The notes: generated by a model from the sequence alone, not told the origin. Positions 13,878 through 52,560 are shown, counted from the stretch's first letter. The stretch: DNA of 53,481 bases from a virus (IMGVR_UViG_3300044707_000344:1-53481); one strand, 5' to 3'. Made by a program: numbers and translations.

Positions 13878-14185
13878 GTGTCTCGCCGACGCGGAGGTTC
13901 ATCTTCGCTTTGGCGGGGCACTTGAAGATGACGGTCGGCGAACTGTGCGAGCGAATGGATTCTCGCGAGTTGTCCGAGTGGATGGCTTACACGCGGTACT
14001 TCCAGGCATTGCCAGATCCGTGGAGACAGACAGGGCTCGAGGTGAGTGCGATGCTGGCACCGTACTCCGCAAAAGGCAAGGCACCGAGTGCCGAGGACTT
14101 CAACCCGATTGAGCATCCGCCGCAGCACGAGGATCAGATGCTCGCACAGATACGAATGCTGCAGTCGGCGCTAGGAACTGGCTGA
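13865..14185 (+). CDS. -1 frameshift extension of tail assembly chaperone (gpGT-like)
   Basis: Open -1 frame GENLSVSPTRRFIFALAGHLKMTVGEL...MDSRELSEW from the GGGGAAAA run up to the tape measure start. Confidence 0.7.
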   Translation, partial: GENLSVSPTRRFIFALAGHLKMTVGELCERMDSRELSEWMAYTRYFQALPDPWRQTGLEVSAMLAPYSAKGKAPSAEDFNPIEHPPQHEDQMLAQIRMLQSALGTG

Positions 14186-17100
14186 TGGCGAATATTCTCG
14201 GACTCGCGCTCAAGGTTAGCGGCGACGCCAGCGGGCTGGCGAAGTCACTCACGCCTGTCGATCGTGCGCTCGACAACCTCGGCAAGCAGGCCGAAAAGGC
14301 CACGGCTGTGTTCCAGCCGTTCGCTGAGAAGACGGCGGCAGCGGGCAAAGCTCAAGAGGAGTTCGCGGCGAAGTTCGAGTCGCTTGCCCAGCAGTTGCGA
14401 AACGGCGTTGTCGCGCCCAATGAGTACGCTGCCGCATTTGGGCAGTTGACCGAAGAGGCGAAGGCGGCGGCGGCGGCTTTCCAAGAGGGGCTGCAAATCA
14501 CGCAGCAGAATCAAACTGCTGATCAAGCAAGAGCGGCTAGTCTTGAGCGGCTCAACGAACTGCTGAAGATGGGTGCAATAGACGCCCGCAACTTTGGCCT
14601 TGAGTCAGCCAAGCTTTCTGAAGGATCGGACAGCACTGCCCTGGATCGCTTCACCGAAGCGATTGCCCCGCTGCGAGCGGCGTTTGAAGGCGGTGCCTTG
14701 TCTGCTGAACGCTTCGCAGAGCAGTCGCGGGAAATTGCTGCAGCGATCAGCGGATCAACGCCAACAGCAGAGCGGCAGGCAACGGCGATCCTTGAGCTAC
14801 GCGATCGCTTTGAAGCTGGGCGAATTTCTATTGAGCAGTACCGTGAAGAGTTTTCACGCATTCAGTCTGGCGACATTGCAACAACATTTGAGGTGCAGGT
14901 CGTCGGAGTTCGCGAGGGCGTTGAGGCGAGCAACGAACTGCGAGCCTCGTTAGCTCAACTGACTGACACGCAGATTACCGCAGCGTTGCAAATCGCTGGT
15001 GTCGAGGAACTGGACGATCTGCGGCAACAGTTTGCTGGCGTTGACGGTACGCAGATCGATGCGGTCCTCAAGGTTCTCGGCGTCGATTCGATTGATGCCG
15101 CACGCGAACGGTTGATCGCCCTGGGTGCTTTGCAGATCGAGCCAAAGCTGCAGGCGATCGGGTTTGAGAACATCGACGCTGCTCAATCAGCGATTGAGTC
15201 ACTAAGTGATCGCAGCGTCACGGCCACGCTTGAGTTTCTTGGGGCCGGGACTATCAGCGATGCGGCAGAAAGGCTGGCAGCACTCGACGGCACCACCGTC
15301 GAAGCGTTTCTGCAGGCAACTGGGTTTGAGTCAATAGATGCCGCCCAGGCCAAGCTTGGTGAGTTGAAAGACGTAGACGTGGCGGCGACGCTACAGCTAC
15401 TTGGCGTAGACACGATTGATGCCGCTAGGAATAGGCTTGTTGCGCTGGGCGAAGTACAAATTCAGCCAAAGCTGCAAGCCATTGGATTTGACTCCATTGA
15501 CGCTGCTCAATCAGCGATTGAGTCACTAAGTGATCGCAGCGTCACGGCCACGCTTGAGTTCTTAGGGACAGACAGCATCGACGATGCACGCGAGCGACTT
15601 GGCGTGATTGACGGCACGACCGTCGAGGCGTTCTTGAGAGCCAGCGGATTCGACTCGATTGACGCTGCACAAGCGAAGCTGGCAGAACTTCAGAGCGTAG
15701 ATGTTGCTGCCACGTTGACGGTGCTTGGCGTGGACACAATAGACGAAGCCCGGCAGCGGCTGGCGTCGATTTCTACCGTAGACATTGAGCCGGTTCTGCG
15801 GCTGCTTGGCGTTGATTCAATTGCTGATGCACGGCAGCAGCTTGCTGCTGTAAACGGCACGGAGATTGACGCGCAGCTTCGCGTGCTTGGCGTAGACGGC
15901 ATTGAGTCCGCAAAGGCACTGCTGGCCAGCGTCGAAGGCAAGAATGTCGACCTCATTGCCAAGACGCTCGGCCTTGATTCTGTTTTGAGCCTCACGCAGG
16001 CGATTGACGCATCCGAAAGCAAGACCGTCACTTTCGACGTTGCCGGAAACGCCGATGAAGAAACGAAGCGCATTGCGGAGCTTGTGACAGAGCAAGACGC
16101 CTATCAGGCTGCCATCGCCGAAGGGCTGCGTGTCACCCGCGAGGTTCGCACGGCAGAAGAACGGCGGGCAGCAGAGCTTGAAAAAATCGAGTCGCTGCTC
16201 GCGCGCGGTGCGATTTCGGAAGAGACTGCCGGGCGTGCTCGGGACAAGGCGACAGGGTCAGTAGAAGCGGCGGCTAGGGCCGAGGCTGAATCGCAGAAGG
16301 CTCGCGAAAAACTCCTGCAAGAAGGGGCGAGACTTACGGAGCAGTTTGCTTCGGAAGAGGAAAAACGAGCAAAGACAATTCAGCAGATTGATGATCTGCT
16401 AAAGGCGGGAGTGATCTCGGAGGAAACATACGCCAAAGCCAGGGGGCAGGCGACCGGCGAAGCGGACAAGGCGGCCGAAGCGGCGAGCAAGTATCAGCAG
16501 GTGATTGAGGACGGGCTACGTGTTACGGCCTCAGTGGCGACTGAGGAAGAGCGGCGAGCGACAGAGCTTGAGAAGCTGGAGAGCCTTCTATCGCAAGGTG
16601 CGATTTCTCAGGAGACGTTCGTCCGTGCGTCAGAGCGTGCCACTGGCGTCGAGAAAGAGCGTGCTGACGCTGCCGCTTCTGCGGCTCGCATCATCGCCGC
16701 GAACCTGACTCCGCAGGAAAAGTACGACCAGCAGATTCAAGAACTCACGCAGCATCTGGACGCCGGCCGTCTGACGCAAGAGCAGTTCAATCGGGCTGCA
16801 CAGAAGGCGAAGTCGGACCTCGACGGCGTCGGCTCGGAAGCAGCGAAGACCGACAAAAACATTGAGCGGCTCAACAAAAACGTCAGCATCCTCGCACAGA
16901 TTGAAATCGGCCGCTTGGTCTTCGACGGTGTGCGTGCCCTCGGCAACGCATTCACGAGCGTGACGAGCCAGATCACCAGCCTGGTGGGCTCTGTCAACTC
17001 GTCGCTCGACACGCTCAACGACTTCTCCGCAAGGACGGGCATCGGCGTCGAGGCGTTGCAGGGCTACGCCGTCGCCGCGAAGCTGGCCGGCGTGGACACG

Positions 17101-27323: not shown

Positions 27324-28181
27324 TCAGCCGATGGCAGGAAGCACATCGCACGGCGGAGGCTCGCGGTCCGTCATACGGCGGTCGAGGTACCATCGCTGCG
27401 TGATCCTCGGGCTGGAGTGGTCGAGCAGCTTCGTCGCATCGCCGCCGAGAGCTGCGTAGTGACTCGCCGCCGAGCGGCGCAGCTGGTGGAAGCCGCTGCC
27501 CCTGCCGTGGCCGAGGCCCGCACGGGCTACGATGTCCTTGTATTTCGACCACAGGTACGTCGGATGCTGCGGCCATTCAAGCAGCTTTCCGGTGCCGCAG
27601 GCCAGACGCACGGCTTCGCACGTCGCCTCGGATAGCTGATACACGCGGTCGCGCTTCCCGCCCTTCCGGTACTCGGCGCGCACCGACAGGAACGGCGGCG
27701 AGAAGTCCTCGGGCAGACACGATAGCACCGCGCCGATCCGTTCGGCCGTCTCCCACAGCACGCTCAGGAGTGCTGTGTACCAGATGCCAGCACGCACGGC
27801 CCCGACCGTGCCGCGTGTTGCGGCGGCGGCCCGCATGAGGGCTTGCAGCTGCTCGACTGACCATGCCGTCGGCACTCGCTCTGGCAGCGGAGCAGGAGGA
27901 ACGCATGGACGATCTTTTAGCACGCCGCGGTCGGCCGCGCACCGCCACAGCGACAACAACTGCGTGCGTTCTTTCTCGGCTGTGTACGGACTGCGGATCG
28001 ACGCTCGATGCTCAAGGTATCGGCTGATCGTCAGGTCTGTCAGGTCGTCGAGCGTCGGTATGTAGCCGAGCCACTTTGCAAACGCGCGGATCGTGCAACC
28101 GTACAGCCTCGTCGTGTTTGCCGAGCGTCCTCGCAGACGCAGCGGCCGGTAGAAGTCGTCAAAGAAGTTCTGAAGTGTCAT
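27324..28181 (-). CDS. int: Tyrosine recombinase/integrase
   Basis: Catalytic R (TAERIG), K (RKGGK), HQLRR, LDHSS, WY; 285 aa with no obvious arm-binding N-domain. Confidence 0.92.
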   Translation of the reverse strand: MTLQNFFDDFYRPLRLRGRSANTTRLYGCTIRAFAKWLGYIPTLDDLTDLTISRYLEHRASIRSPYTAEKERTQLLSLWRCAADRGVLKDRPCVPPAPLPERVPTAWSVEQLQALMRAAAATRGTVGAVRAGIWYTALLSVLWETAERIGAVLSCLPEDFSPPFLSVRAEYRKGGKRDRVYQLSEATCEAVRLACGTGKLLEWPQHPTYLWSKYKDIVARAGLGHGRGSGFHQLRRSAASHYAALGGDATKLLDHSSPRITQRWYLDRRMTDREPPPCDVLPAIG

Positions 28182-28272
28182 CGGCGGGCCTCTGTTGAGG
28201 TATAGGCCACGCCTCCGTGCTGGTGTTGTGCATCCTGCTTGAAGTAGTCGTAGCGGTTGTGCGGGCCTCCTA

Positions 28273-28291
28273 GAGTCCTGTCCCCGCCATT
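28273..28291 (+). other. Candidate attP core: tRNA 3'-end-like fragment
   Basis: GAGTCCTGTCCCCGCCA resembles the T-loop 3' half, T-stem and acceptor strand of a tRNA starting GGCGGGG; intergenic next to int. Confidence 0.5.
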
Positions 28292-28357
28292 TGACTCCCA
28301 GCCGTCCAACGTGGGCGGCTGGCTGTCTTTGTCACGAATACCACCGGTACGCGAACA

Positions 28358-28579
28358 ATGCAAAAGGCACCTGAGTGGATTTCAGTCCCCGTCGCCGCCG
28401 AACTCCTTGGCTGCACGGACGTTTGGGTCATCAAAATGATTGAACGTGGCGACTTAGAAGGGTTTCGGCTCAACGGCCGAGCCTGGGCCGTCAACAAAAA
28501 GAGCGTCGAGAAAAACTTGCAAGAGTACCTCAATCGCGACCCCGCCCTTTCTGGCAGAAAGAGATCGAAACTCGTGTAG
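28358..28579 (+). CDS. Excisionase-like (MerR-type/HTH_17) DNA-binding protein
   Basis: WISVPVAAELLGC...IERGDLEG...AWAV; divergent from int. Confidence 0.75.
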   Translation: MQKAPEWISVPVAAELLGCTDVWVIKMIERGDLEGFRLNGRAWAVNKKSVEKNLQEYLNRDPALSGRKRSKLV

Positions 28580-28613
28580 CGACTATTGACACGGAAGTGA
28601 ATAGAGCCTACGA

Positions 28614-28868
28614 ATGAGGGAGAACGGCGTGGAGGAGCAGCAAGTGGTCTATATTTCTGGTCAGGAAGCGGCGCGGCGGCTCGGCTGTGCGCCGATCACG
28701 GTGAGTCGCATCGCTCGGCAGCAAGGCATCGGCGTCATCGTCGAGGACGGGCGGCTGGCTGCGCTTGCCACGACGGATCTTCTGAGGATCAAGCCGTTCC
28801 TCCACCCGACCGCAGGCAATCCGCTCTGGATTGCCGCGAAGAAGAAGCGCAAGAAACGCGAAGCGTGA
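28614..28868 (+). CDS. HTH DNA-binding protein
   Basis: YISGQEAARRLGCAPITVSRIA; CTATTGACA upstream at 28583-28591. Confidence 0.65.
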   Translation: MRENGVEEQQVVYISGQEAARRLGCAPITVSRIARQQGIGVIVEDGRLAALATTDLLRIKPFLHPTAGNPLWIAAKKKRKKREA

Positions 28869-28870
28869 CG

Positions 28871-29020
28871 TTCCCAGCTATATAGGGAATTTCACACAGG
28901 GCAAAAACGCTTCGCGGCAGCACGTTTTCGCGGCACCCCCGCCTAAACGGTTGCGCCGCAATGGTTTAGACGGCCGCCAGAATTGCCGCGGAAACGTGTC
29001 CTGCCGCCCTTTGTTTTGGG
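28871..29020. repeat. 150-bp palindromic element, copy A (ori-like)
   Basis: Aligns without gaps to 37659-37808; internal inverted repeats. Confidence 0.8.
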
Positions 29021-29125
29021 GCAGACCCGGGGTACGTCGAACTTTTGACACGCCCCTGATTCGGCCAGCCCTATATAGAAAAGGGGCTTTCTCCCGCGAA
29101 ATACGCAGCAAAAAAAATTTTACCC

Positions 29126-29188
29126 CGCCCCTATTGACAGCCGATAAAGAATTGGTAGAATGAGGGGGTCAACGCGGCGGACCCCGCG
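29126..29188 (+). promoter_or_regulatory. Strong sigma70-type early promoter P1 plus leader hairpin
   Basis: TTGACA (29134)-N16-TAGAAT (29156), extended -10 TG, upstream A-tract; duplicated at 31253. Confidence 0.85.
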
Positions 29189-29214
29189 AGACGCCAACAA
29201 CGGAGAACACGACG

Positions 29215-29481
29215 ATGACCAATCGCAAAATCGAACGCATCGCAGCCACCGACGTGCAGGACGGCGACATCATCTTCACCTACGGCTATCGGTGCCGTGC
29301 CAGCGGGTGCCACGATTCGACGGCAGGCGACGGCCAGAAGGTTCGCACGTTCATCCTGACCAGCGAACCGGATGCGCTCAACGGCCAACGGCTGACCGGC
29401 GGCTTCAACGGTGGCCGGTACGGCGGCAACGCCCGCGCGACTTATGGCCGCGAGGTTGTGCCGCACACGGTCGAGGGCTGA
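29215..29481 (+). CDS. Early hypothetical protein
   Basis: ACGGAG RBS; first gene after P1. Confidence 0.75.
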   Translation: MTNRKIERIAATDVQDGDIIFTYGYRCRASGCHDSTAGDGQKVRTFILTSEPDALNGQRLTGGFNGGRYGGNARATYGREVVPHTVEG

Positions 29482-29492
29482 TTGTTCGGATA

Positions 29493-29530
29493 CCCGTGCT
29501 GCGGGCGTTCCGCAGCACGGGCGGGACTGA
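29493..29530 (+). promoter_or_regulatory. GCGTT-loop hairpin 1 followed by GGACTGA
   Basis: 12-bp perfect stem CCCGTGCTGCGG/CCGCAGCACGGG. Confidence 0.7.
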
Positions 29531-29555
29531 CGGGACTTCAACGGAGGACGGGACG

Positions 29556-29858
29556 ATGGCATTCAAGTTTCCCTGCGACATGACGGAGGACGAGCGGGAG
29601 CAGTATCACCGCCAGCGGTTCGAGGACGATCGTCGGGCCGGTGCGAAGAGGTTCGGTCTGAAGACCGACGAGGTGCTGTTCTACAACAGTGGCATCTGCT
29701 ACGACCGGATCGTCGTGACAACGATGCGGGCAGCGAGGAAGGTCGCCAAGGCGGTCAAAGGCGGCACGGTGAACGGCGGCTACCTCGACGGGATGCCGCT
29801 CGGCGGTATCAGCGAAGAGAAGCGTGAAGACAAAGTGGCCTACAGCGTGTACTGCTAA
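29556..29858 (+). CDS. Early hypothetical protein
   Basis: CGGAGGACGGGACGATG leader, identical to that of the next gene. Confidence 0.75.
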   Translation: MAFKFPCDMTEDEREQYHRQRFEDDRRAGAKRFGLKTDEVLFYNSGICYDRIVVTTMRAARKVAKAVKGGTVNGGYLDGMPLGGISEEKREDKVAYSVYC

Positions 29859-29864
29859 TCGGTG

Positions 29865-29913
29865 CCTGCCCCGGCGGGTGCGTTGCCCGCCGGGGCAGGA
29901 CTGATTGTTCGGA
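29865..29913 (+). promoter_or_regulatory. GCGTT-loop hairpin 2 followed by (GG)ACTGATTGTTCGGA
   Basis: 14-bp perfect stem plus a T-G pair closing the GCGTT loop. Confidence 0.7.
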
Positions 29914-29939
29914 AACCTAATCAACCGGAGGACGGGACG

Positions 29940-30497
29940 ATGAGTGCAAATCAGGTGTTGGCAGTATTTCACGCCGCGCTCAAGCGGCACGCGACAAACA
30001 GGGCAGGCGACTATCTAGCCGGGGCGTTTATCGCCGTCCCGCACCAGCTTCCGCCGACGTTGATGGACAACAGTTTCAGCCCGCCCGATGAGGAAGCAGG
30101 CGACCAGCACGTCCTGGGCGACCACGACTTTCACCGCTGCGTGTCGTTGGTCGACGGCCTGGACTATGCCGGGCATCAGGCCATCAAGGTGCAGGCTCTC
30201 GCCGCCCAAAGGCTGCGATTGGTACTAGGCTCGGATTGGCAGGAGCGCGTCCTGTGCGACCTCTATTCTGGGACCGCGATGAGCGACCCCGACTACCGGC
30301 GATTGGCAGAGCCGCTGCTGTGGGATTGCGTCTGGCCCGAGGTCGATGCTGACAGGTGCTTGACCGGTCGGCTTGTCGACGACAGCGAAGGCTACGCCAA
30401 CGTCATGAACGAGGCCATGATGAGTGAGGACGTAGCCAGGGCTGCCGGGCTGGTGATCGAGGACGGGTACGTTCACGACAGTCAGGAGGCGCAGTGA
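29940..30497 (+). CDS. Early hypothetical protein
   Basis: GGAGG RBS; 185 aa. Confidence 0.75.
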   Translation: MSANQVLAVFHAALKRHATNRAGDYLAGAFIAVPHQLPPTLMDNSFSPPDEEAGDQHVLGDHDFHRCVSLVDGLDYAGHQAIKVQALAAQRLRLVLGSDWQERVLCDLYSGTAMSDPDYRRLAEPLLWDCVWPEVDADRCLTGRLVDDSEGYANVMNEAMMSEDVARAAGLVIEDGYVHDSQEAQ

Positions 30498-30964
30498 TGC
30501 AGACCTTCCTCCCCTGTCCTTCGTTCAACGAGTCTGCCCGCTGTCTCGATTACCGCCGCCTTGGCAAGCAGCGTGTCGAGTGCAAGCAGATTCTGCTCGC
30601 GCTCGGCGTGCCGGTTGGCGAGCACCAACCGAAGCCGACGGCGTGGGCGAATCATCCGGCAGCGAGAATGTGGCGCGGCCACGAGTTCACGCTTGTCGAG
30701 TACGCCATCGAGGTGTGCCACGAGTGGATACGTCGTGGCTACAACGACACACTGCTGCCGCAGTTCAAAGAGTGCTGGTGGCAGATCGCGTGGAGCAGCG
30801 ACCGTCTGATGGCGTCTCCTAACTGGATCGGCTACGACGCGTTCCACGCCAGCCATCGCAGCAACCTGCTCCGCAAGGATCGCCAGCACTACGGGCGGTT
30901 CGGTTGGAAAGAGCCCGCCGACCTTGAGTACGTGTGGCCGGTCGAGAAGGAGGTGGCGGCATGA
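30497..30964 (+). CDS. MSMEG_6728-like / pyrimidine-dimer DNA glycosylase family protein
   Basis: MQTFLP...LDYRRLGKQRVE, NHPA.RMWRG, SHRSNLLRKD, YVWP. Confidence 0.85.
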   Translation: MQTFLPCPSFNESARCLDYRRLGKQRVECKQILLALGVPVGEHQPKPTAWANHPAARMWRGHEFTLVEYAIEVCHEWIRRGYNDTLLPQFKECWWQIAWSSDRLMASPNWIGYDAFHASHRSNLLRKDRQHYGRFGWKEPADLEYVWPVEKEVAA

Positions 30965-31206
30965 TCCGCGACCTTCTCCGCACCGTCTGCGTGATCGCCG
31001 CGATGGCGTCGGCCTGCTCGCTGCTCATCGAGACGCGGCTGCAACTTGCTTCGATCGACATCGCGCAGCGTCAGGCGGTGATGCCTATGGCGGGCCTGCC
31101 GACTGCGTACCCTCAGCCTGCACCGGCCTCGCCGCCGGGGCGGCTGCGGGTCTTCGGGCGGGCGGTTCTCGATCTGGCCGACGCGGGCCTGGGGGTGGTG
31201 CGGTGA
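30961..31206 (+). CDS. Small membrane-anchored protein
   Basis: GGAGG RBS, ATGA overlap, N-terminal hydrophobic segment. Confidence 0.65.
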   Translation: MIRDLLRTVCVIAAMASACSLLIETRLQLASIDIAQRQAVMPMAGLPTAYPQPAPASPPGRLRVFGRAVLDLADAGLGVVR

Positions 31207-31252
31207 AGACCCCCAGAAAACACCGGGAAAATAGGGGCAAAAAAATAATCCA

Positions 31253-31314
31253 CGCCCCTATTGACAGCCGATAAATATTGTGTATAATGAGGGCATGACG
31301 CGGCGGACCCCGCG
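31253..31314 (+). promoter_or_regulatory. Strong sigma70-type early promoter P2 plus leader hairpin
   Basis: TTGACA (31261)-N16-TATAAT (31283); 23-bp and 17-bp blocks identical to P1. Confidence 0.9.
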
Positions 31315-31341
31315 GCAGGACAACGAAACGGAGGACGAACG

Positions 31342-31554
31342 ATGTACGAGTTTGCGATCAAGACAAAAATCGGCTGGGTGGCTGGGATCAACCGGGCTCA
31401 CATGGTTGTGACTTGCACGACAGACATTCGGCTCGTGAAGACGTTCAAGACGCACAAGGCGGCGAACGCATTTCGCCGCAAGTACGAAAACACCGGAATG
31501 GGCCTGAACGCTGACGCCGAGGTGGTTCAAGTACCGTTCTTTTTTGGATGCTGA
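31342..31554 (+). CDS. Early hypothetical protein
   Basis: ACGGAGG RBS after P2. Confidence 0.7.
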   Translation: MYEFAIKTKIGWVAGINRAHMVVTCTTDIRLVKTFKTHKAANAFRRKYENTGMGLNADAEVVQVPFFFGC

Positions 31555-31594
31555 TTGTTCGGACTTCCAATCAAACCACAACGGAGACACGACG

Positions 31595-31795
31595 ATGACC
31601 CCTGCTAGCAAGATGGACTTCAAGAAGATTCAAGACGCGATCCGGATGCTCGGCCGAGACGATATGCGGACGCGGCTCACGACGAAGATCGGCGACAACC
31701 CCGCCAACGTGGACGCCACGCTGACGCTGATCGAGAACCTGTGTGCCGTGATCCGGCAGCAGGAGGGGCTGGTGGTCGAGGAGATCGAGTGCTGA
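31595..31795 (+). CDS. Early hypothetical protein
   Basis: ACGGAG RBS; leader similar to that of 29215. Confidence 0.7.
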   Translation: MTPASKMDFKKIQDAIRMLGRDDMRTRLTTKIGDNPANVDATLTLIENLCAVIRQQEGLVVEEIEC

Positions 31796-31802
31796 CTGAC
31801 TT

Positions 31803-31852
31803 GCGGCTCGGCCGCGTTGGCCGTGCCGCTGGACTGATTGTTTAGGTTCGGA
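31803..31852 (+). promoter_or_regulatory. GCGTT-loop hairpin 3 followed by GGACTGATTGTT
   Basis: GCGGC-T-CGGCC/GGCCG-T-GCCGC stem with GCGTT loop. Confidence 0.65.
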
Positions 31853-31873
31853 AACTAACGGAGGACTCTGACT

Positions 31874-32761
31874 ATGAACGAGATGATCACCTGCAACGTG
31901 GCCGACAAGGTTCGCTCGGCCTTCAATTTCAGCATCGATAAGTTCCCGCTGCGGGGACCGGAGAACATGGCCACGCCGTTCTACGGCCTGTTCCGGTCTG
32001 ATACCGGCGCGGCGGTCGGCTACGGATCGGTCAGCGACCGCTACACGCCGCACACGACTGACGACGTGCTGGCGTTGGTCGAAGCGGCCGGCGTGGCGTT
32101 CGACGGCGTGGCCGATGTGAAGTGTTATTTCGACCACGGCCACTACGTCACGGTCCAGCCGACGAAGGAGCAGCGGCTCGCGGTGTACGGCACGAGGGAC
32201 AACGTGTTTCCTCGCATCGTGATCGACGCCGGCTACGGCGGGCAGGCGTTCCGCGCCTCGCTCGGAATGTATCGCGACGCCTGCCGCAACATGATGATCC
32301 TGCGGCAAGCCGAGGGCACGAACGTGGCGATCCGCCATACGTCGAGCCTGCTGCTTCAGATGGACGAACTGATCGCGACGTTCGCTTCGCTGGAAGCGGG
32401 CTGGGGCAACCTCACGGCTGTCGTGCAGCAGATGCAGTCCCGCGAGGTTCGGATGGTCGAGTTTCTCAACGCGATCTACGGCGAGCCGAAGTCTGACGAA
32501 CGCCGCTCGGTCACGATGCACCGGCACCGCACAGAGGCCATCTTCCGCCGCCTGTCGTCGGAGCGGATGGTCACGGGCCGGGGCTCGCTCGGCTCCGACT
32601 TCGTGGTCACAGGCTGGGAAGCGTTCAACGCGGTCCAGGGATACGTCCAGCACGACAGCATCCGCCGCGGTCGGCCGACCGAGATGGAGCGGATCGTGCG
32701 GGCGCTGCACGACGGCAAGGTTGCACAGGCCGAAAGGCTTGCACTGACGATGGCGGTCTAG
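31874..32761 (+). CDS. DUF932-like domain protein
   Basis: RSDTG...VSDRY, RDACRNMM, IRHT, GWEAFNAV. Confidence 0.7.
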   Translation: MNEMITCNVADKVRSAFNFSIDKFPLRGPENMATPFYGLFRSDTGAAVGYGSVSDRYTPHTTDDVLALVEAAGVAFDGVADVKCYFDHGHYVTVQPTKEQRLAVYGTRDNVFPRIVIDAGYGGQAFRASLGMYRDACRNMMILRQAEGTNVAIRHTSSLLLQMDELIATFASLEAGWGNLTAVVQQMQSREVRMVEFLNAIYGEPKSDERRSVTMHRHRTEAIFRRLSSERMVTGRGSLGSDFVVTGWEAFNAVQGYVQHDSIRRGRPTEMERIVRALHDGKVAQAERLALTMAV

Positions 32762-32792
32762 TCCCCCGCCAGACGCCGCGTAAGCGGCAGTC

Positions 32793-32841
32793 GCCGTGGC
32801 GGGTGGGTTCCACCGTTCCCCCGCCCGCCACGGCTCTTTTC
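32793..32841 (+). terminator. Rho-independent terminator
   Basis: 15-bp stem GCCGTGGCGGGTGGG/CCCGCCCGCCACGGC followed by TCTTTT. Confidence 0.65.
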
Positions 32842-32874
32842 AAACAACGAACGGCAACCAAAGAAAGGGACAAC

Positions 32875-33180
32875 GTGGAACACATCAACAAGGGCACTCC
32901 GGTCTACAGCGCGTACATCGGAACGAACCCGGAGCTTCACTGGATCGACGAGGGAGTGATCTCGGAGATCGTCTTCAACGGCCAGCCGCTGGTGAGATGC
33001 GGCGACGCGCTAGTGCCGTATGGCAAGAAGTGGCGACTGACGAAGGCTGATGCTCGCCGCGACATTCACGCCGCGCTCATTCGGCACATCGGGAAGCTGC
33101 AGGCCGAGGCCGACAAGATGGCCGACGAGATCCTCCACGAAGACCTCGCTACGGAGGAGGTGACTCGTGGCGTGGCATGA
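32875..33180 (+). CDS. Hypothetical protein
   Basis: AAAGGGA RBS before GTG. Confidence 0.65.
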   Translation: MEHINKGTPVYSAYIGTNPELHWIDEGVISEIVFNGQPLVRCGDALVPYGKKWRLTKADARRDIHAALIRHIGKLQAEADKMADEILHEDLATEEVTRGVA

Positions 33181-34579
33181 CTCTTTCGACCGGATGAAGC
33201 AGCGTCCGCACGTGTTGGTCGTGTGTCCGCAGGCCGTGGCACCGGCATGGGGTCGAGTTCTTGTCGGGGCATCACGCGGTGAATTCACTGCGTGGCGTCA
33301 CCAGCGAGACGCAGCGGCGTGGGCAGCGGAGCGGCACGCGTCGATGCTCGCGCTTGATATGGGCACGGGCAAGACGCTCACGACGCTGCTCGCTCTCGGA
33401 ATCGACAAGCCGGGCGTCGAAGCTGTGCTGCTCCACGACGGCGAGAACAAGAAGCGTGCAGAGAGACTTCGCAACGCCCTGCTGATGGCGGCGGGCAGAA
33501 CGCTGGTGGTTGTCGTGAACTACGACAGCGTCTGGCGTGGCGAACTTGGAAAGATTATTGAAGCAACGTCGTGGGCAGCGATCGTGCTGGATGAGTCGCA
33601 CAGAATCAAATCGCCGGGAGGAAAAGCCTCGCGGTGGCTGGCAAGGATTGCGGCGAAACACGACCACGCCAAACGGCTCTGCCTCACAGGCACGCCAATG
33701 CCTCACAGCCCGCTCGACTTATACGGGCAGTTTCGGTTCCTCGATCCGAACGTATTCGGCGCAAGCTATACGAGAATGCGGGCTCGCTACGCAGAATGCG
33801 ACCCGCGGTTCCCGTCGAAGGTGCGCACGTGGCGGAACCAAGACGAACTGGCGGCGAAACTCGACGCTCATTCCTGGCGTGTTACGGCAGACGAAGTGCT
33901 CGATCTGCCCGATGCAATCCACGAAACAATCCCGGTCGAACTCAGCCCGAAGGTGTTGCGGTTCTACCGCACGTTCGAGAAAGAGATGACGGCAGAAATT
34001 GATGCCGGCACAGTCACCGCGGCAAATGCGTTGACGAAGCTCCTGCGGATGGCTCAGGCAACCGGCGGCTACGCCCGCATTGACGGCGCGGCTGGCGTGA
34101 CTGCGATCGACGGCATCCCAAGCAAGCGGCTAGCGCTGCAAGATCGGCTGGAAGATTTGTCGGCTACGGAGCCAGTGGTTGTATTCTGCCGGTTCCGCAG
34201 CGACCTCGATGATGTGGCCGCCGCGGCCCGCGAGTTAGGCCGCGAGTACGCTGAGGTGTCGGGCGAGCGGAAAGATCTCGAGCGATGGCAAGCCGGTGAC
34301 GCGGCGATTCTCGGCGTGCAGATGCAGTCGGGCGGCGTCGGGATTGACTGCTCGCGGGCGGCCTACGCCTTCTACTACAGCCTCGGCTACTCGCTAGGCG
34401 ACTACGAGCAAAGTCTGGCCCGTCTACGGCGACCGGGGCAGACGCGGTGCGTGCGGTACTACCACCTTGTGTGCCAGGGCACAGTGGACGAGCAGGTGTA
34501 CGCGGCATTGAGGGAGCGTCGAAATGTTGTCGACGCGGTGCTGCAAAAACTTTCGCCGAGGAAAGGTGCAGTGGCATGA
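33167..34579 (+). CDS. SNF2-like (SF2) helicase with rearranged N-terminal motifs
   Basis: LALDMGTGKT, LDESH, LTGTP, VVVFCRF, SGGVGID, QSLARLRRPGQ. Confidence 0.92.
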   Translation: MAWHDSFDRMKQRPHVLVVCPQAVAPAWGRVLVGASRGEFTAWRHQRDAAAWAAERHASMLALDMGTGKTLTTLLALGIDKPGVEAVLLHDGENKKRAERLRNALLMAAGRTLVVVVNYDSVWRGELGKIIEATSWAAIVLDESHRIKSPGGKASRWLARIAAKHDHAKRLCLTGTPMPHSPLDLYGQFRFLDPNVFGASYTRMRARYAECDPRFPSKVRTWRNQDELAAKLDAHSWRVTADEVLDLPDAIHETIPVELSPKVLRFYRTFEKEMTAEIDAGTVTAANALTKLLRMAQATGGYARIDGAAGVTAIDGIPSKRLALQDRLEDLSATEPVVVFCRFRSDLDDVAAAARELGREYAEVSGERKDLERWQAGDAAILGVQMQSGGVGIDCSRAAYAFYYSLGYSLGDYEQSLARLRRPGQTRCVRYYHLVCQGTVDEQVYAALRERRNVVDAVLQKLSPRKGAVA

Positions 34580-35031
34580 GTATTGAATTGGAGATCGACG
34601 GCCAGCTTGCGGACAGCCAGCAGCTTTCAAAGCTGCTAGAGCGAGTGGCCGAGTTGCAGGCCGAGAAGGAGCGGATCGCTATCGAGGCGAAGAAGGTCAA
34701 CAAGGCACTTGACGAGGCCGAGCAGATGGCAGTCGAGGTGCTGGCGGCGTCGGGCCTCGACGGCGTGCGGGCGGCTGGAAAGTCGTGGTCCACTCGCGAG
34801 TTTTTCAGCGTTAGCGTGCCGAGCGAGAACCGCGAGGCAGTTGTCGAGGCCGCGGAGGAGGCCGGGCTTAGCGACTTGATTGCGGTCAACACGACCACGC
34901 TCAAGTCGTGGCTGGTCGAGAACCGCGGCGACGGCCAGCCAGCCGAGGCGGGTTTGGCCGCCGGCACCCCATTCGAGGGGCTGATTGATGAGTACCGGGA
35001 GGTGCGGCTGTCGCACCGAACGCTGGGTTGA
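34576..35031 (+). CDS. Replication-module coiled-coil protein
   Basis: ATGA-coupled to the helicase; VNTTTLKSW. Confidence 0.7.
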   Translation: MSIELEIDGQLADSQQLSKLLERVAELQAEKERIAIEAKKVNKALDEAEQMAVEVLAASGLDGVRAAGKSWSTREFFSVSVPSENREAVVEAAEEAGLSDLIAVNTTTLKSWLVENRGDGQPAEAGLAAGTPFEGLIDEYREVRLSHRTLG

Positions 35032-35086
35032 TTGTTTGGGTACGTTCTGTTTCTATTTCTTCACTTCACGAAAGGATTGGTGGCTG

Positions 35087-35851
35087 ATGACTCCGACGGG
35101 TGAACTCATTACGGGTGCAGCGCAGAGCAAGTTTCTGGCCCTGCGTCCCGACTCGGACGTGCGTGAGGCTCTGATGGCGAACCTGGGGCCGGGTGAGACG
35201 CTGCTGGCGTCCGACCTGCCCCGCGTCTCAACGCCCGCGGCCGGCGGCAAGGTGTGGTCGTGGACGGACTCGGGGAACAACGAGCAGTCCGCGAAGAGCA
35301 TCGACGGCGTGCTCGTCTACTACGGCGTGCGGGGCACGCTGTGGGGCAGCGAGGAGCCGCAGGGCAAGGCGTCTCCGGTGCTGGTGTCCTACGACCTCAT
35401 GACCGCGGTCAGGGTCAACGAGGACATCGGCGACCTCGATGCCGACGTGCTGGAGTCGTGCCGCACTGGTGACCGCACCTACGATTGGACGAGGCTTCCG
35501 TACAACCAGTACGGCACGAGCAAGTCCGGTCGCGGCAAGCGGTGCAAGGAGTCTCGCCTGCTGGCGATCCTCCGCGGCGACGAGGCGTGGCCGCTGCTGG
35601 TGACGGCGGGGCCGGGCTCGCTGAAGACGGTGACCCCGTTCGTGAAGCGTCTGGCCGTGCCGCACTACCGTGCGATCGTGAGCCTGACGCTCGACAAGGT
35701 TGAAAACGCGGGCGGGCAGCCGTACTCGCAGATCGTCCCGAAGTTCATCGGCTCGATCACGAAGGAAGAGGGCGACATCGTGCGGCGGCTTTACACCGAG
35801 CCGCTGTCGCGTGTCGCCACGCAGATCGACGTGCCGCAGGATGCGGCGTAG
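35087..35851 (+). CDS. Putative ssDNA-binding/recombination protein
   Basis: GKRCKE.RLL, P..GSLK; located between helicase and primase. Confidence 0.55.
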   Translation: MTPTGELITGAAQSKFLALRPDSDVREALMANLGPGETLLASDLPRVSTPAAGGKVWSWTDSGNNEQSAKSIDGVLVYYGVRGTLWGSEEPQGKASPVLVSYDLMTAVRVNEDIGDLDADVLESCRTGDRTYDWTRLPYNQYGTSKSGRGKRCKESRLLAILRGDEAWPLLVTAGPGSLKTVTPFVKRLAVPHYRAIVSLTLDKVENAGGQPYSQIVPKFIGSITKEEGDIVRRLYTEPLSRVATQIDVPQDAA

Positions 35852-35876
35852 TCAGGGAAGGGCTCGTCGGTCATAC

Positions 35877-35919
35877 GCCCCCGCGCCTCGTGGAGACGCG
35901 GCGCGGGGGCTTTCCTTTC
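35877..35919 (+). terminator. Rho-independent terminator
   Basis: GCCCCCGCGCC/GGCGCGGGGGC stem followed by TTTCCTTT. Confidence 0.65.
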
Positions 35920-35943
35920 ACCGCACAAACGGAGGATCTGATC

Positions 35944-37665
35944 ATGAGCGTGGGCACGCTCGCGGCATCGTACTGCCGCCTTGGATGGCATCTAGTGCCG
36001 CTCTACGGAGTGGTCGAGCCGGAAGTCTGCACCTGCATCAAAGGCAACGACTGCGGCACGCCGGGCAAGCACCCCAGCGGCGGAACGGCGTGGCACCTGT
36101 CCGCGACGAACGACGAGGACGAGGTGCTGAGTTGGTACGAGCGCAGTCAACCTGTGAACGTCGGCCTGCTCCTCGGCCCGAAGTCTGGTGTGATCGACGT
36201 GGAACTCGACGGCGACGATGCAAAGTCGGCGTGGAACGACCTCGACCTCGGCGAGATTTGGACGCCAACTTACCAGGCAGGCCGCGGACCACATCGGCTG
36301 TTTCGCTGGCGGGAAGACCTGCCTGCCGTCGCGGTGCGGAAGGTGCTTGGCATCGAAGTTCGGATCGGCAACGGCGGCAAGGCGGCGCAGTCGGTCGTGC
36401 CGCCATCAACGCACCACACCGGCATCCGCTACGAGTGGGTGCCTGGCATGAGTCCGGACGACGTGGAACTCCAGCCGCTTCCAGAGCGGTTGCTGAACCT
36501 GCTCTGGAACGATGACGGCAGCGGGCAAACGCGGGCTATAGCAAGGTCGCCGGCCCGCGAGATGCTGCATCGGCCCGTGCAGTCGGGCGGCAGGAACAAC
36601 GAGCTGCACAGGTTCGCCGTCTCCGAGGCGTTCCGCGCGGGGCCGAACCTCGACCACGAACGGGAGCAGCAAGACCTGCTGCTCAAGATTCGGGCGGTCA
36701 ACGCGATCCAGTGCAAGCCGCCGCTCGACGATGCGGAGTGCGTGGCGATCTACCGCTCGGCCATCGGGTTCGTCCGCAAGAATCGGGCCGCGGGTGTTTC
36801 GGCAGACGCGGCGATCATCGCCGCCGAGATGGCATCGCCGCCTGCGGTCACGGCCCGCCAGCCAGGGCTGACGCCGACCGGGTGGCAACGAGTGTTTACG
36901 GAAGTCGGCTTGTCCTACGCTCCGCTGACACCGGATTCGGACAGCGACCCCGAATGGGGGCCGGGCGAGTGGGGGCTGACCATCGTGCACAGCGACCCCA
37001 TCGAGTACCGCCTGCACGTCCCGCACTGGCGGAATTACACGCCAGACCACACAGGCAACGTGACGCTGACCGTGGATCAGTACCGCTCTGCACCGAAGGT
37101 GGCGGCGCAGGTGCTGGCCGCGACGGGCCGCGTGATGCTCGACGACGACCCGAAGCGGTGGCGTCAGATTTGGGACGGCGGCTACAAGGTCCGCGACAAC
37201 GTCTCGGCTGGCGACCGGTCGACCAAGCGGAACGCCCGTGGAGTCAAGGCGAAACTCCTCGACAACGCGGGGGAGGAGTGGCCAGGAGCGTCGAGCCTGC
37301 GGTACGTGCTCCTGGCTTCGTGGCTCTACGACCGGCTAGCCCAGGCTGCCCAGCCGTCCGATGATGACATTCCCGACCCGACCGGCCGGGCAGCGTGGCG
37401 GGCAGACGGCACGTTGTGGTTCGCGTGGGGAAAAATCTGGGAAGACATCGAGCGGCAGCACCGGGTTGAGACGGGAGAGCGGCTTGCCCTCAAGAGGCGT
37501 CTGCTTGCCCGTATGGGGGCCGCAGAGGATTTCCGGCATGAGGAGCACCGGCACCTCGGCGGTGCCCGCAAATCGTACGTGGTGTGGTCTCGGAGGGAAT
37601 TCGCGGTGCTAGAAGATATGGCCGCGACACTGACGACCGCCGGGCCTGCCGACGGGACTTCCTAG
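35944..37665 (+). CDS. Bifunctional primase-polymerase (Prim-Pol) with PriCT-like domain
   Basis: CTC...CGTPGKHP, NVGLLLG, IDVELD, GRGPH, VVPPSTH, GGRNNEL, CKPPL. Confidence 0.85.
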   Translation: MSVGTLAASYCRLGWHLVPLYGVVEPEVCTCIKGNDCGTPGKHPSGGTAWHLSATNDEDEVLSWYERSQPVNVGLLLGPKSGVIDVELDGDDAKSAWNDLDLGEIWTPTYQAGRGPHRLFRWREDLPAVAVRKVLGIEVRIGNGGKAAQSVVPPSTHHTGIRYEWVPGMSPDDVELQPLPERLLNLLWNDDGSGQTRAIARSPAREMLHRPVQSGGRNNELHRFAVSEAFRAGPNLDHEREQQDLLLKIRAVNAIQCKPPLDDAECVAIYRSAIGFVRKNRAAGVSADAAIIAAEMASPPAVTARQPGLTPTGWQRVFTEVGLSYAPLTPDSDSDPEWGPGEWGLTIVHSDPIEYRLHVPHWRNYTPDHTGNVTLTVDQYRSAPKVAAQVLAATGRVMLDDDPKRWRQIWDGGYKVRDNVSAGDRSTKRNARGVKAKLLDNAGEEWPGASSLRYVLLASWLYDRLAQAAQPSDDDIPDPTGRAAWRADGTLWFAWGKIWEDIERQHRVETGERLALKRRLLARMGAAEDFRHEEHRHLGGARKSYVVWSRREFAVLEDMAATLTTAGPADGTS

Positions 37666-37808
37666 TTATATGGAAAATTTCAACACGCCCAAAACCGCTT
37701 TGCGGCGGCTCGTTTTCCCGGCAAGGTGCGTTTCGTGCCGTAAAAACAAGTGCAGAACGTGCCGGGAAAATTGCCGGGGAAACTGTTTTTGCCGCGAGAA
37801 CTTTTGGG
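37659..37808. repeat. 150-bp palindromic element, copy B (likely replication origin)
   Basis: Between primase and helicase genes; TGCCG..AAA repeats in both orientations; homologous to 28871-29020. Confidence 0.8.
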
Positions 37809-37854
37809 AACCGCGATTGTTCACCCCCCTTCTGGTTTTAGCAAGGGCAATCTA

Positions 37855-39501
37855 GTGAAGATAGCAAGACTCATCGGCGCGGCCGGCAGCGGCAAGACGA
37901 CCGAACTCCTGAAGATCATGGAGGCGGCGTTGCCTAAGTTGGGCGGCAATCCCCTTCGCCTTGGATTCGCCAGCTTCACGCGGGCCGCGCGGGCCGAGGC
38001 GGTCGGGCGGGCGGCAGCGGCGTGGAACGTCGCCCCGTCGATGCTCGACGGCGAGGGGTGGTTTCGCACCGTCCACTCGACAGCCCGCAGGTGCTTGGGG
38101 CTAGAGCCTGGGCAGCTGATCGGCAACTCCGCGGCCGACACCGAATGGATCAGCAACGCGCTCGGCGTGAAGGTTTCGACGAGTATCGACGACGACACGG
38201 GCCGGCAGAAGTTCGTCGGCGGGCAGGAGGGGGCCGCGCTCACGTGCTGGGAGCGGGCAAGAAACACGCTCCAGCCGCTCGACGAAGTCGTGCGAAAGAT
38301 GCGGCGGCTCGACGACGACGTACCAGACTACGCGGCGGTTGTTCGGATATCCGAACGGTACGAGATGGCGAAGCGGCTAGGAGATCGTCTCGACTTCTCA
38401 GACTTGCTCCTGCGGTTTTCCGGGTTCCGCCTGCATACGGTTGACGGCATCGCGAGAACGGAGCCGGAAGGCGAGCTGCCAGACGTATCCGCGTGGCTGT
38501 TCGACGAGCAGCAAGACGCCAGCCCCCTGCTCGACGCGGCCTGCAAGCGGCTTGTCTCGGCTGAGTCCGTGAAGTGGTGCTACGTCGTGGGCGATCCGTT
38601 TCAATCGATCTTCGGCTTCGCGGGGTCAAGTGCGGAGTGCTTCCTTGGTTGGCCGGCGGAGAAAGAGCGGACGATGCCAAAGTCGTATCGCTGCCCGAAG
38701 CCGATTCTTGAACTCGGCGAGCGGTGCCTGCGGCGGATGCACCGCGGCTACTTCGACCGAAAGGTGGCACCGGCCGATCACGAAGGTCGCATATTCGACT
38801 GCGAGACAGAACTTCCATTCATCCGCGCAAGGCCAGACGAGGAGTGGCTGTTTATCGCTCGCACGAATTATGAGGCGAATCGGCTCTACGCCAGCCTGCA
38901 CGCGGCAGGAAAGCCCGCGAAGTGGGTAACGCAGCAGGAGGGGGCGACGGCGCGCGGCACGGGCCTCGCCGCCCTCTACGCCTTGGAGAAAGGCCAGCAC
39001 GTCAGCGGCAGCGAGTGGGCGCGTGCGATTGAATTGTTGCCATGCACGAACAAAGACAAGGAGCCGATGCTGGACCGCGGCGCGAAGACCGGCTGGGCGA
39101 AGAAGCACTCCGACGAGTGGGACGTGATCTTCCCCGACGATCTCCCGAAGGTCGGCGCGACCGAGCCGCTCGTCGAGAAGATTCGCAGCGGCAGGTGGTG
39201 CGGCCTCGTGGACCGCGGCGAAGAGTGGCGGCGACACGCCGAGCGGTGGGGTCCGAAGCTGGTTGCCGAGACGAAGATCCGCGTCGGGACAATCCACTCG
39301 GTCAAGGGCATGGAGGCCGACAACGTAGCGCTGCTCACGACGGTCGGCAAGCGGGTCGAGCAGGGCCGCGAAGACTGCCAGGACCAGCACGATGAAGAGT
39401 GCCGGATTGCCTACGTCGGCGTGACGCGGGCACGGCGGAATCTGTACGTCGTCAACGAAGGGCGGCACGGGAAGCCGGTGCCGCGCATGGAAGTGCTGTG
39501 A
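37855..39501 (+). CDS. UvrD/Rep-like SF1 helicase
   Basis: GAAGSGKTT, FDEQQD, VGDPFQSIFGF, SYRCP, TIHSVKGME, YVGVTRAR. Confidence 0.93.
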   Translation: MKIARLIGAAGSGKTTELLKIMEAALPKLGGNPLRLGFASFTRAARAEAVGRAAAAWNVAPSMLDGEGWFRTVHSTARRCLGLEPGQLIGNSAADTEWISNALGVKVSTSIDDDTGRQKFVGGQEGAALTCWERARNTLQPLDEVVRKMRRLDDDVPDYAAVVRISERYEMAKRLGDRLDFSDLLLRFSGFRLHTVDGIARTEPEGELPDVSAWLFDEQQDASPLLDAACKRLVSAESVKWCYVVGDPFQSIFGFAGSSAECFLGWPAEKERTMPKSYRCPKPILELGERCLRRMHRGYFDRKVAPADHEGRIFDCETELPFIRARPDEEWLFIARTNYEANRLYASLHAAGKPAKWVTQQEGATARGTGLAALYALEKGQHVSGSEWARAIELLPCTNKDKEPMLDRGAKTGWAKKHSDEWDVIFPDDLPKVGATEPLVEKIRSGRWCGLVDRGEEWRRHAERWGPKLVAETKIRVGTIHSVKGMEADNVALLTTVGKRVEQGREDCQDQHDEECRIAYVGVTRARRNLYVVNEGRHGKPVPRMEVL

Positions 39502-51367: not shown

Positions 51368-52560
51368 TGAACGCTGGCATCTTTGGCTCATCGGCAGCCG
51401 TGGCGATGCCGGCTGTATCACCGCAGCCGTCGGACGGGCCGCGATCCAGTTCCGGCTTGCCCGATTGGAGGAGTTCTGCGGATCTGTCTCGCTACACTGC
51501 CGCCATCAGATTCGGCATCGCGTCGTCCGTGAGAGTAGCAGATACGCTCTCGCTCGCGGGTGCGGCAAACTCATTTCCAGGGACGGTGGGAGCGTATCAA
51601 GGCGGCGTCACGCTGCCCGACGGCAGTGTGTTCTGCCCACCGCGAAACGCTACGCAGGCGAGAATATACAATCCACGGACAGATACGGTATCGACAGCCG
51701 GACCAGCAAGCTCATTCCCGGGCTCTAACGCTTACGCCGGCGGCGTACTGATGCAGGACGGTCGCGTGTTTTGCGTCCCAAACATCGGCGCAACTCAGGC
51801 GCGAGTCTACGATCCACGCACGGATACTGTCAGCCTCGTCGGTCCAGCAGGCTCGTTTCCTACGTCGCACAATAATGGCGTGCTCCTCCGAGACGGGCGC
51901 GTGTTTTGCTCGCCCGCGCCAGTCGCTGGGTCTGCAACCTCGGTGGCGCGAGTCTACGATCCGCGTAATGACACAGTTTCCAGCTACGGCACGTTCTCCA
52001 CAGGCGCAAACGATTGGCAGGGTTGCGCGCTGATGCTTGACGGTCGCGTGTTTGTCTGCCCTCGCTCGGCAACGCAGGCGAGGATCTTTGACCCGACCAA
52101 CAACACTGTCTACGCCGCCGGAAGCCCAAGCTCATTCCCGGGCTCTAACGCTTACGCCGGCTGCGTACTGATGGCTGATGGCAGGGTGCTATGCGTTCCA
52201 CTCAGCGCCACGCAGATACGAATCTATGACCCATACGCAGACAGAGTGACGTTGGCTGGCCCTGCGACATTCCCCGCCAGCAATTCCTTCGCTTATGGCG
52301 TGCTGATGCCTGACGGTCGCATACTGATGACGCCGTTCAACGCGACCTCGTTGCGAATCTATGATCCAGTCACGGACACGGTGACGCTGGCCGCAGGCAC
52401 ACTTCCAGGGGCAAACGCTGTGCTAGGTGCATCGCTTTTGATGGATGGTCGCATGATTATCTGCGCGTACAGCGGCACGCAGGCGCGGACCTACGGCAGG
52501 GCGGGCAGCACTTATAACCAAAACGTAATACTGAGCGGTTCCTTTTACAACAGGTCGTAG
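51367..52560 (+). CDS. Kelch-like beta-propeller protein
   Basis: About 7 repeats of GVL..DGRVFC.P..ATQARIYDP..DTV. Confidence 0.8.
   Translation: MNAGIFGSSAAVAMPAVSPQPSDGPRSSSGLPDWRSSADLSRYTAAIRFGIASSVRVADTLSLAGAANSFPGTVGAYQGGVTLPDGSVFCPPRNATQARIYNPRTDTVSTAGPASSFPGSNAYAGGVLMQDGRVFCVPNIGATQARVYDPRTDTVSLVGPAGSFPTSHNNGVLLRDGRVFCSPAPVAGSATSVARVYDPRNDTVSSYGTFSTGANDWQGCALMLDGRVFVCPRSATQARIFDPTNNTVYAAGSPSSFPGSNAYAGCVLMADGRVLCVPLSATQIRIYDPYADRVTLAGPATFPASNSFAYGVLMPDGRILMTPFNATSLRIYDPVTDTVTLAAGTLPGANAVLGASLLMDGRMIICAYSGTQARTYGRAGSTYNQNVILSGSFYNRS

Follow-up and report, generated by a model that had tools for sequence, protein, structure and literature searches.

According to passages of Berkner et al. 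2014 (PMC4234260), replication of pRN1 needs a 100-nt stem-loop downstream of orf904, the integrity of which matters; the interior of this stem-loop is unconserved in sequence and conserved in structure, its flanks are conserved, and the gene for a related replicase in the Bordetella phage BIP-1 also has a comparable stem-loop after it. The same passages carry the proposal that replicases composed of an archaeo-eukaryotic primase (AEP), a helicase and a winged helix assemble at such stem-loops (PMC4234260). In P4, crr immediately follows the alpha primase gene, and ori is found ~4.5-5 kb away, upstream of the early operon; both contain the same octamer in both orientations, and crr is labelled 'cis required' (NC_001609). 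The winged helix of alpha binds these repeats (as summarised in a passage of PMC4234260). Here, we describe a pair of palindromic elements, copies A and B, in the viral sequence IMGVR_UViG_3300044707_000344:1-53481 (hereafter the window, meaning the whole stretch of 53,481 nucleotides that was analysed). The window, a complete record of an uncultured virus from a lake-water sample, is 53.5 kb long and has 63% GC and nearly all genes on the + strand. Judged from their sequences, A and B are most likely paralogous DNA elements that act in cis within the phage replication module. By analogy with the systems above, we assign a probability of about one half to the reading that B is a stem-loop origin of the pRN1/BPP-1 type beside the replicase gene, with A as a second origin or a crr-like partner.

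The two copies (A, 28871-29020; B, 37659-37808) align without gaps and in the same direction, with 49/65 identical positions in the first part, 12/45 in the centre and 28/40 in the last part (89/150 overall). The coordinates, match counts, direct gapless alignment and unrelated centre had been reported in an original prediction made from this DNA, and all were exact on recount. Comparison of copy A with all other 150-nt segments of the genome, on both strands, gave a mean of 39.0 matches (standard deviation 5.4) and a runner-up of 68, which makes B a clear outlier. The arm motif GTTTTCSCGGCA, with at most one mismatch, occurs six times against 0.68 expected, every time within A or B. Units of the GTTTTCNCGG type are common to A and B, are present in both orientations, and occur nowhere else in the genome. 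The pairs GTTTTCGCGGCA / TGCCGCGGAAAC in A and GTTTTCCCGGCA / TGCCGGGGAAAC in B were found as originally written, and the box and tract of B rank in the top three of all 20-nt segments of the genome by AT content. The features of the two copies are as follows.

28871..29020, + strand: copy A; begins 3 nt past the p84 stop codon (TGA, 28866-28868); profile R1 score 77.5 bits
28879..28898, + strand: box of A, TATATAGG (28879-28886), and A/T tract (28887-28898)
28924..28935, + strand: left-arm unit of A, GTTTTCGCGGCA
28936..28970, no strand assigned: variable central palindrome of A, A-type, CTAA..TTGCG.CGCAA..TTAG
28971..28995, - strand: right-arm inverted units of A, a degenerate unit (28971-28983) and then TGCCGCGGAAAC (28984-28995)
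37659..37808, + strand: copy B; the PrimPol stop codon (TAG, 37663-37665) falls within its first bases; profile R1 score 104.6 bits
37667..37686, + strand: box of B, TATATGGA (37667-37674), and A/T tract
37712..37723, + strand: left-arm unit of B, GTTTTCCCGGCA
37724..37759, no strand assigned: variable central palindrome of B, B-type, GGTGCGTTTCG..loop..GAACGTGCC
37760..37801, - strand: inverted units of B (37760-37771, 37772-37783 and 37790-37801), with GTTTTTGCCG between units 2 and 3

A search with the PrimPol protein returned 31 IMG/VR loci with 61-100% identity, which come from uncultured freshwater phages. A profile of A and B matched on the + strand 0-73 nt past the PrimPol stop codon in 30/31 loci; in the 31st (L026), a diverged element after PrimPol is recognisable by eye and was missed by the profile. 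A second copy is located 8.8-11.7 kb upstream wherever the locus extends that far, always directly after a homologue of p84. Searching relatives for one versus two copies had been proposed with the original prediction. We scanned 10 full relative records with a sequence model built from 40 distinct copies, and found exactly two same-strand copies, 9.1-13.7 kb apart, in 8/10, only the PrimPol-adjacent copy in 2/10 (both complete), and three copies in none; the window itself has two. Because two complete records carry only B, we regard B as the universal copy and A as an old, usually retained duplicate. The two relatives that lack A suggest that A is dispensable in them. One of these complete single-copy relatives (G002/L006) has kept Int, p73 and p84, with promoter-like sequence and the next gene following in place of A. 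The syntenic order across the window and its relatives is Int, p73, p84, A, early genes, SNF2, PrimPol, B. The predicted placement of B between the genes for PrimPol and a UvrD-like helicase, and of A upstream of the early promoter P1, was likewise confirmed. B-position copies of the three most distant relatives have an A-type centre, which suggests from sequence that the A-type centre is ancestral.

Among cultured phages, there was no megablast match to positions 28000-38500, and tblastn with PrimPol gave only matches of at most 32% identity, confined to the Prim-Pol domain; TerL is at most 44% identical to its counterparts in cultured phages. No prophage was found in a scan of genome contigs with the PrimPol protein. 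The sole match to PrimPol in genome collections was a 6.9-kb contig of a metagenome-assembled genome (L033, VGYP01000148.1) which encodes a PrimPol of 88% identity and carries element B. This contig is binned as Planctomycetota and is too short for a trustworthy host assignment.

The family-wide anatomy of the element was read from an alignment of the 40 copies (A2, 177 columns). The element begins with a TATAT(A/G)GG box, usually with CCC before it, followed by a 12-nt tract with a mean of 68% A+T (37% in the genome), which is an A-run in 21/40 copies and a T-run in 11/40. Then come a short C(A)AAAC unit, which one subclade has replaced with the inverse (GTTTGAG or ATTTCATG), a TTCG block, the left arm CGGTTTTCNCGGCA with an invariant GTTTT, and a centre of ~37-45 nt that is entirely different between the A and B classes. 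The element is completed by an inverted pair of GCCGNGAAAAC units with a period of 12 nt, by GTTTTTGCCG and by a small variable hairpin, in that order. The unit cores GTTTT and AA..AA are invariant in the 40 copies. Identity of the centres is 0.28 between A and B within a genome and 0.58-0.62 between orthologues. A rare TCTATG variant of the box is common to both copies of one genome.

This distribution bears on the possibility of a selfish or neutral palindromic repeat, resembling miniature inverted-repeat transposable elements or repetitive extragenic palindromes, or of a conserved linker aiding homologous module exchange between phages. The copies are palindromic, intergenic and ~150 bp long, and they lie at the edges of a block with mosaic inner genes, in which early genes vary and homologues of p288 (34985-35851) form two allele classes, ~90% and ~50% identical to that of the window. 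The p288 classes do not track PrimPol identity, which points to mosaic exchange inside the A-B block. However, no full relative record has more than two copies, and these occupy one and the same pair of syntenic positions throughout; the motifs stay unchanged even where PrimPol identity falls to 61%; and copies A and B of the window have neither box-inclusive terminal inverted repeats nor evident target duplications. We consider an origin of the pair as such a repeat or linker extremely improbable.

In part of the element, the two copies of a genome resemble each other more than chance pairs of copies do. We compared A and B in 10 non-redundant genomes carrying both copies, with partners permuted 5000 times. 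In the 5' third of the element (box to TTCG block), within-genome A-B identity was 65.1% compared with 51.5 +/- 3.1% for permuted partners, and 0/5000 permutations reached the observed value. The excess was smaller in the right arm (76.6% vs 70.8%) and absent in the centre (28.1% vs 29.3%). The likeness of the 5' thirds fits a common trans-acting factor with genome-specific preferences, or short-tract conversion.

The centres are variable in sequence and prone to form hairpins. With DNA fold parameters the centres have a mean z of -3.1, with z below -2 in 27/40 copies and below -1 in 36/40, and some are perfect 12-13-bp stems of quite different sequence. The palindrome may possibly be extruded on either strand. 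The original prediction had also pointed to a G-C to C-G swap, described as compensatory, in the arms of the two copies. This swap is present in the window and is not kept family-wide: the position corresponds to the degenerate N of the unit, with CG in 12 of the 40 copies, GC in 4, UA in 4, GU or UG in 2, and no pairing in 18. Because it is unpaired in 18/40 copies, the position is not a maintained base pair. Two other candidate pairings were rejected, namely a second helix between TTCGCGG and right unit 2 (just 63% Watson-Crick) and a stem formed by the left arm and right unit 2, which pair no better than the left arm and unit 1 do.

The gene that B follows encodes the candidate replicase.

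35890..37665, + strand: PrimPol, 591 aa, with an AEP Prim-Pol domain, a helical domain, a low-confidence middle and a C-terminal probable winged helix (37273-37662)

The Prim-Pol domain matched Pfam at 2e-21. An AlphaFold2 (AF2) model had a predicted local distance difference test score (pLDDT) of 62.8, with confident Prim-Pol and C-terminal domains, the helical domain present, and low confidence for residues 316-470, which could be assigned to no domain; the best structural matches were the pRN1 ORF904 primase and NrS-1 PrimPol. The C-terminal 130 residues are the best-conserved part of the protein (74% mean identity) and have a pLDDT of 86.5 when folded alone. The top structural neighbours of this domain are nearly all winged-helix DNA binders (Foldseek probability 0.8-0.9; VIA-align Z 5-6.9), including SSV1/STIV F93, the oriT-binding TcpK, PadR, the C-domain of CRP/FNR, RTP and the winged helices of ORC. 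The modelled structure thus makes a winged helix at the PrimPol C-terminus probable. The small protein p84 was considered as a paralogue of this C-terminal domain and rejected (BLASTP E = 33).

The original prediction offered two readings of the pair, as replication origins or as recombination sites that could excise the intervening segment, and the former is the better supported of the two; we found no support for the latter. An origin is also the best supported reading overall because B adjoins the 3' end of PrimPol in all relatives, because the element has an AT-rich box and inverted short repeats around a hairpin, and because the replicase has a probable winged helix and there are published precedents in pRN1 and in ori and crr of P4. 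B would be the primary element, an extended palindrome of ~100-150 bp directly 3' of the primase-polymerase gene, with a box and tract that should melt easily. We infer that PrimPol binds the repeated units, beside its own gene, through its C-terminal winged helix. The AT-rich tract and extruded palindrome would expose single strands on which PrimPol would prime, with extension by host enzymes together with the UvrD-like and SNF2 helicases encoded nearby. Copy A, which heads the early operon and apparently arose by an ancient duplication, could be a second origin or a crr-like site for the same factor. A and B bracket the early/replication block, much as ori and crr of P4 lie around the alpha operon, and they may cooperate.

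Several observations weigh against this origin reading. Of 22 sequencing runs, all of them DNA contigs from lake or freshwater metagenomes, four were compared with the window, and contig depth in these is flat across the region. GC skew, suggested as a check by the original prediction, rises monotonically across the region with no inflection at A or B and was uninformative. Even for pRN1, the replicase could not be shown to bind the stem-loop region specifically (passage of PMC4234260). The winged-helix scores of the PrimPol C-terminus are below threshold (Foldseek E of at least 0.04, Z < 8). There is no Walker A motif in PrimPol, hence no superfamily 3 (SF3) helicase of the pRN1 type, which leaves the UvrD-like or SNF2 proteins encoded nearby to supply helicase activity. 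For the helix that joins the left arm to right unit 1, pairing amounts to 86.9% compared with 84.4% in shuffles, and both sides have changed in only 2/12 pairs. With RNAalifold, neither the full set of 40 copies nor the A-type set gave a single predicted pair, and the B-type set gave nothing beyond an outer stem that is invariant. Several of the central palindromes pair poorly, having 6-8 pairs plus mismatches. The + strand folds slightly better than the - strand as RNA (mean -40.4 vs -38.3 kcal/mol), doing so in 26/40 copies. Finally, 21/22 B copies examined have no downstream promoter scoring at least 10/12, so B is probably transcribed, which leaves room for a role as RNA.

The last two observations would suit a structured cis-acting RNA in + strand transcripts, located after p84 and between PrimPol and the helicase, which could be a processing or stability hairpin or a site of antitermination or attenuation. 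Both copies are sense-oriented and lie directly past stop codons, and the B-type centres have conserved tandem G.U pairs. In the window, both copies fold into long hairpins, with RNA z of -3.9 and -3.6 on the + strand and -2.5 and -0.8 on the - strand. On the other hand, the + strand advantage is missing in A copies (7/13) and comes from copies that are phylogenetically non-independent, and palindrome mismatches are without strand bias (G:T 66 vs A:C 59). Neither A nor B matched Rfam at the gathering cut-off or at E <= 1, RNAalifold gave no covarying consensus, and the mini-hairpin around the TATAT box has no covariation (3.4 vs 3.53 permuted). A terminator scan found no U-tract terminator spanning the element and flagged only a 5-bp hairpin inside B. 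The 5' unit is found in either orientation across copies, and flips in its polarity and in that of the A/T tract would change an RNA completely. Because these flips keep the DNA properties and not the RNA sequence, we read the element as acting on DNA; on this sequence signature, action at the DNA level is quite likely and an RNA function is unlikely. The one Rfam match obtained, at positions 37836-37937 and overlapping the start of the helicase gene, is to the c-di-GMP-I riboswitch with 18 bits (gathering cut-off 35) and an E-value of 0.53, and most likely reflects chance.

The gene order of the window begins with terminase, portal, capsid, tape measure, tail genes, exonuclease, Int (- strand), p73, p84 and copy A. 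After A come two near-consensus sigma70 promoters, variable early genes, a Pyr_excise glycosylase, DUF932 and the SNF2 helicase, followed by DUF7307, p288, the 591-aa PrimPol, copy B and the UvrD-like helicase. The features that flank the two copies are as follows.

27324..28181, - strand: tyrosine integrase (Int), 285 aa
28358..28579, + strand: p73, HTH_17 (excisionase/AlpA-like)
28614..28868, + strand: p84, small, with a weak helix-turn-helix (HTH) match and a basic tail; its stop codon always precedes A where A is present
29134..29161, + strand: early sigma70-type promoter P1, TTGACA-16-TAGAAT; twin at 31261-31288
37855..39501, + strand: UvrD-like superfamily 1 (SF1) helicase, directly downstream of B

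Copy A lies ~115 nt upstream of P1. P1 and its twin are within a 55-nt direct repeat (29112-29166 and 31239-31293, 82% identical), each copy of which has a near-consensus sigma70 promoter (TTGACA-16-TAGAAT and TTGACA-16-TATAAT); the repeat copies share an upstream A-run and a CCCCGCCCC block and may be a common operator. Among 50 proteins scanned, there was no phage RNA polymerase, DNA polymerase, ParA, CI-like repressor, or initiator other than PrimPol. A sigma70 promoter inside the element itself is unlikely, as no conserved -35 precedes the box and there is no phage RNA polymerase in the 50 proteins. The early gene at 30494-30964 encodes the Pyr_excise domain (a T4 endonuclease V-like pyrimidine-dimer glycosylase; Pfam E 1e-19). 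In L004, ~915 nt separate two tblastn pieces of the UvrD-like helicase homologue (11978-14533), an interruption that may be an intein or a homing-endonuclease insertion.

The neighbours of A raise the question of whether the copies bind a protein for some purpose other than replication, as operators or looping sites (for a phage regulator such as the HTH proteins p73 and p84 or some repressor) or as centromere-like sites for a ParB-like protein, bounding or regulating the early block. Units in two orientations, co-evolution of the 5' thirds and the DNA-level signature would suit any sequence-specific DNA-binding factor, and A always follows the HTH gene p84, beside int and the xis-like p73 and upstream of early promoters. 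A ParB-like protein is encoded at 324-956, and dispersed centromere palindromes are known in the plasmid-prophage N15. However, the universal copy B is tied to PrimPol and not to a promoter or p84, and a strong promoter follows A in only 4/13 copies, at 87-108 nt. Pfam gave nothing for the ParB-like protein at E <= 0.01, and neither ParA nor a CI-like repressor is among the 50 proteins. Sites of this kind seem an unlikely explanation of the pair.

Int also lies next to copy A, and the original prediction included directly repeated integrase sites, recombination between which would release the 8.8-kb early/replication block in circular form or amplify it in that form. The copies are in direct orientation, flank a discrete block and adjoin int and xis; each has several subsites, loosely resembling res or att sites, and the content of the block is mosaic among relatives. 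Against this, the centres of A and B are unrelated (12/45), so that no crossover core is shared there; a short shared core could still lie in the TATAT box. The relative G002/L006 has Int, p73 and p84 without A, 2/10 full records are single-copy, and the 285-aa Int lacks an arm-binding domain. Junctions between A and B were absent from the contigs of the four independent lake metagenome runs, which are colinear through A and B, although contigs drop rare forms and do not show starts or ends. Taken together, excision or amplification by the integrase is very unlikely. No variant letters were found within A or B in the contigs of these runs. In one run (X2), contigs skip 2372 bases at 29208/31581 and 4385 bases at 34964/39350, with flanks of 20-23 nt, and these skips probably represent related strains with other early-gene content.

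Returning to the origin reading, a stronger version of it would make A and B an obligate cooperating pair of PrimPol-loaded stem-loop origins. The 5' thirds would then be the specificity code of a genome-specific initiator complex, and synapsis of A and B through looping, comparable to that of ori and crr in P4, would license initiation or selectively over-replicate the 9-14-kb early/replication block early in infection ('onion-skin' or sub-genomic replicon). We regard this version as speculative and improbable; if true, the cooperating pair would be a new origin architecture for tailed phages without their own DNA polymerase.

Origins of uncultured phages are almost never mapped, and here a sharply delimited and conserved cis element is tied to PrimPol throughout a clade of freshwater phages. 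This provides a candidate origin, plus a candidate DNA motif read by the C-terminal domain of the replicase. It would extend the pRN1/Bordetella-phage proposal (a stem-loop 3' of the gene for an AEP replicase) to a PrimPol that has no helicase of its own and works with separate SF1 and SNF2 helicases, and would add a duplicated, co-evolving second site reminiscent of ori and crr in P4. If confirmed, the system would supply a minimal replicon, made up of PrimPol and B with A as a possible third part, for a group without a cultured member, and a test case for two-site origins arising by duplication.

Elsewhere in the window, positions 1-236 and 53246-53481 form an exact 236-bp direct repeat at the record ends, which is either a circular-assembly overlap or a terminal repeat; the record is classed as 'linear' despite this repeat, and the classification of three relatives is direct terminal repeats. 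A 397-aa late protein has diverged tandem repeats at 51600-52400, their period being ~135-147 nt, and there are periodic repeats of 81/324 nt at 15071-15926 in a 1747-aa tape-measure-like open reading frame.

The closest likeness is to pRN1. There, as here for B, a large palindrome (~100 nt) lies directly downstream of the gene for an AEP primase-polymerase, whereas A follows p84 instead. The interior is variable yet hairpin-prone and the flanks are conserved in both systems, although here there is no covarying consensus from RNAalifold and some centres are poorly paired. Both replicases have a helical domain and a C-terminal winged helix (probable here), and ORF904 is the best structural match. 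Unlike the pRN1 stem-loop, the palindrome here is built of repeated GTTTTCNCGG-type units after a TATAT(A/G)GG box and an A/T tract, and the replicase has no SF3 helicase, a UvrD-like helicase being encoded next door. Most genomes here also carry a co-evolving second copy 9-14 kb upstream, and none is described for pRN1 in the passages of PMC4234260 cited above.

The likeness to P4 lies in two separated cis regions which bracket an early operon ending in a primase gene, one of them directly after the primase, and in a short repeat present in both orientations at both sites, although binding of PrimPol to the units is here only a candidate interaction. The differences are that the P4 primase is a TOPRIM protein with an SF3 helicase whereas PrimPol is an AEP enzyme without a helicase domain, and that the P4 repeats are octamers without a large palindrome. 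In addition, the int-proximal site of P4 (crr, beside int/attP) follows the primase gene whereas here it is the upstream site (A), and both P4 sites are needed whereas 2/10 relatives here lack A.

The oriV of RSF1010, with its RepB'-primed ssiA and ssiB sites, shares repeats, an AT-rich region and single-stranded hairpins recognised by an AEP-fold plasmid primase, and differs in that it relies on three individual proteins and that a single oriV holds two short hairpins, one on each strand (as described in passages of PMC4234260). By description, the near-symmetric palindrome here resembles the RSF1010 sites in that it would offer a hairpin on both strands.

Iteron arrays lie on both sides of the initiator gene in P1 (oriR/incA) and in F (ori2/incC), and the core origin of SV40 combines inverted pentamers with an AT tract. 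The elements described here are similar in that repeats flank the candidate initiator gene and short symmetric motifs lie beside an AT-rich tract; they differ in that those systems have other initiator families, and in that the sites here span an 8.8-kb block and each is a composite palindrome. The elements would be a variation on known origin types and not a new kind of system.

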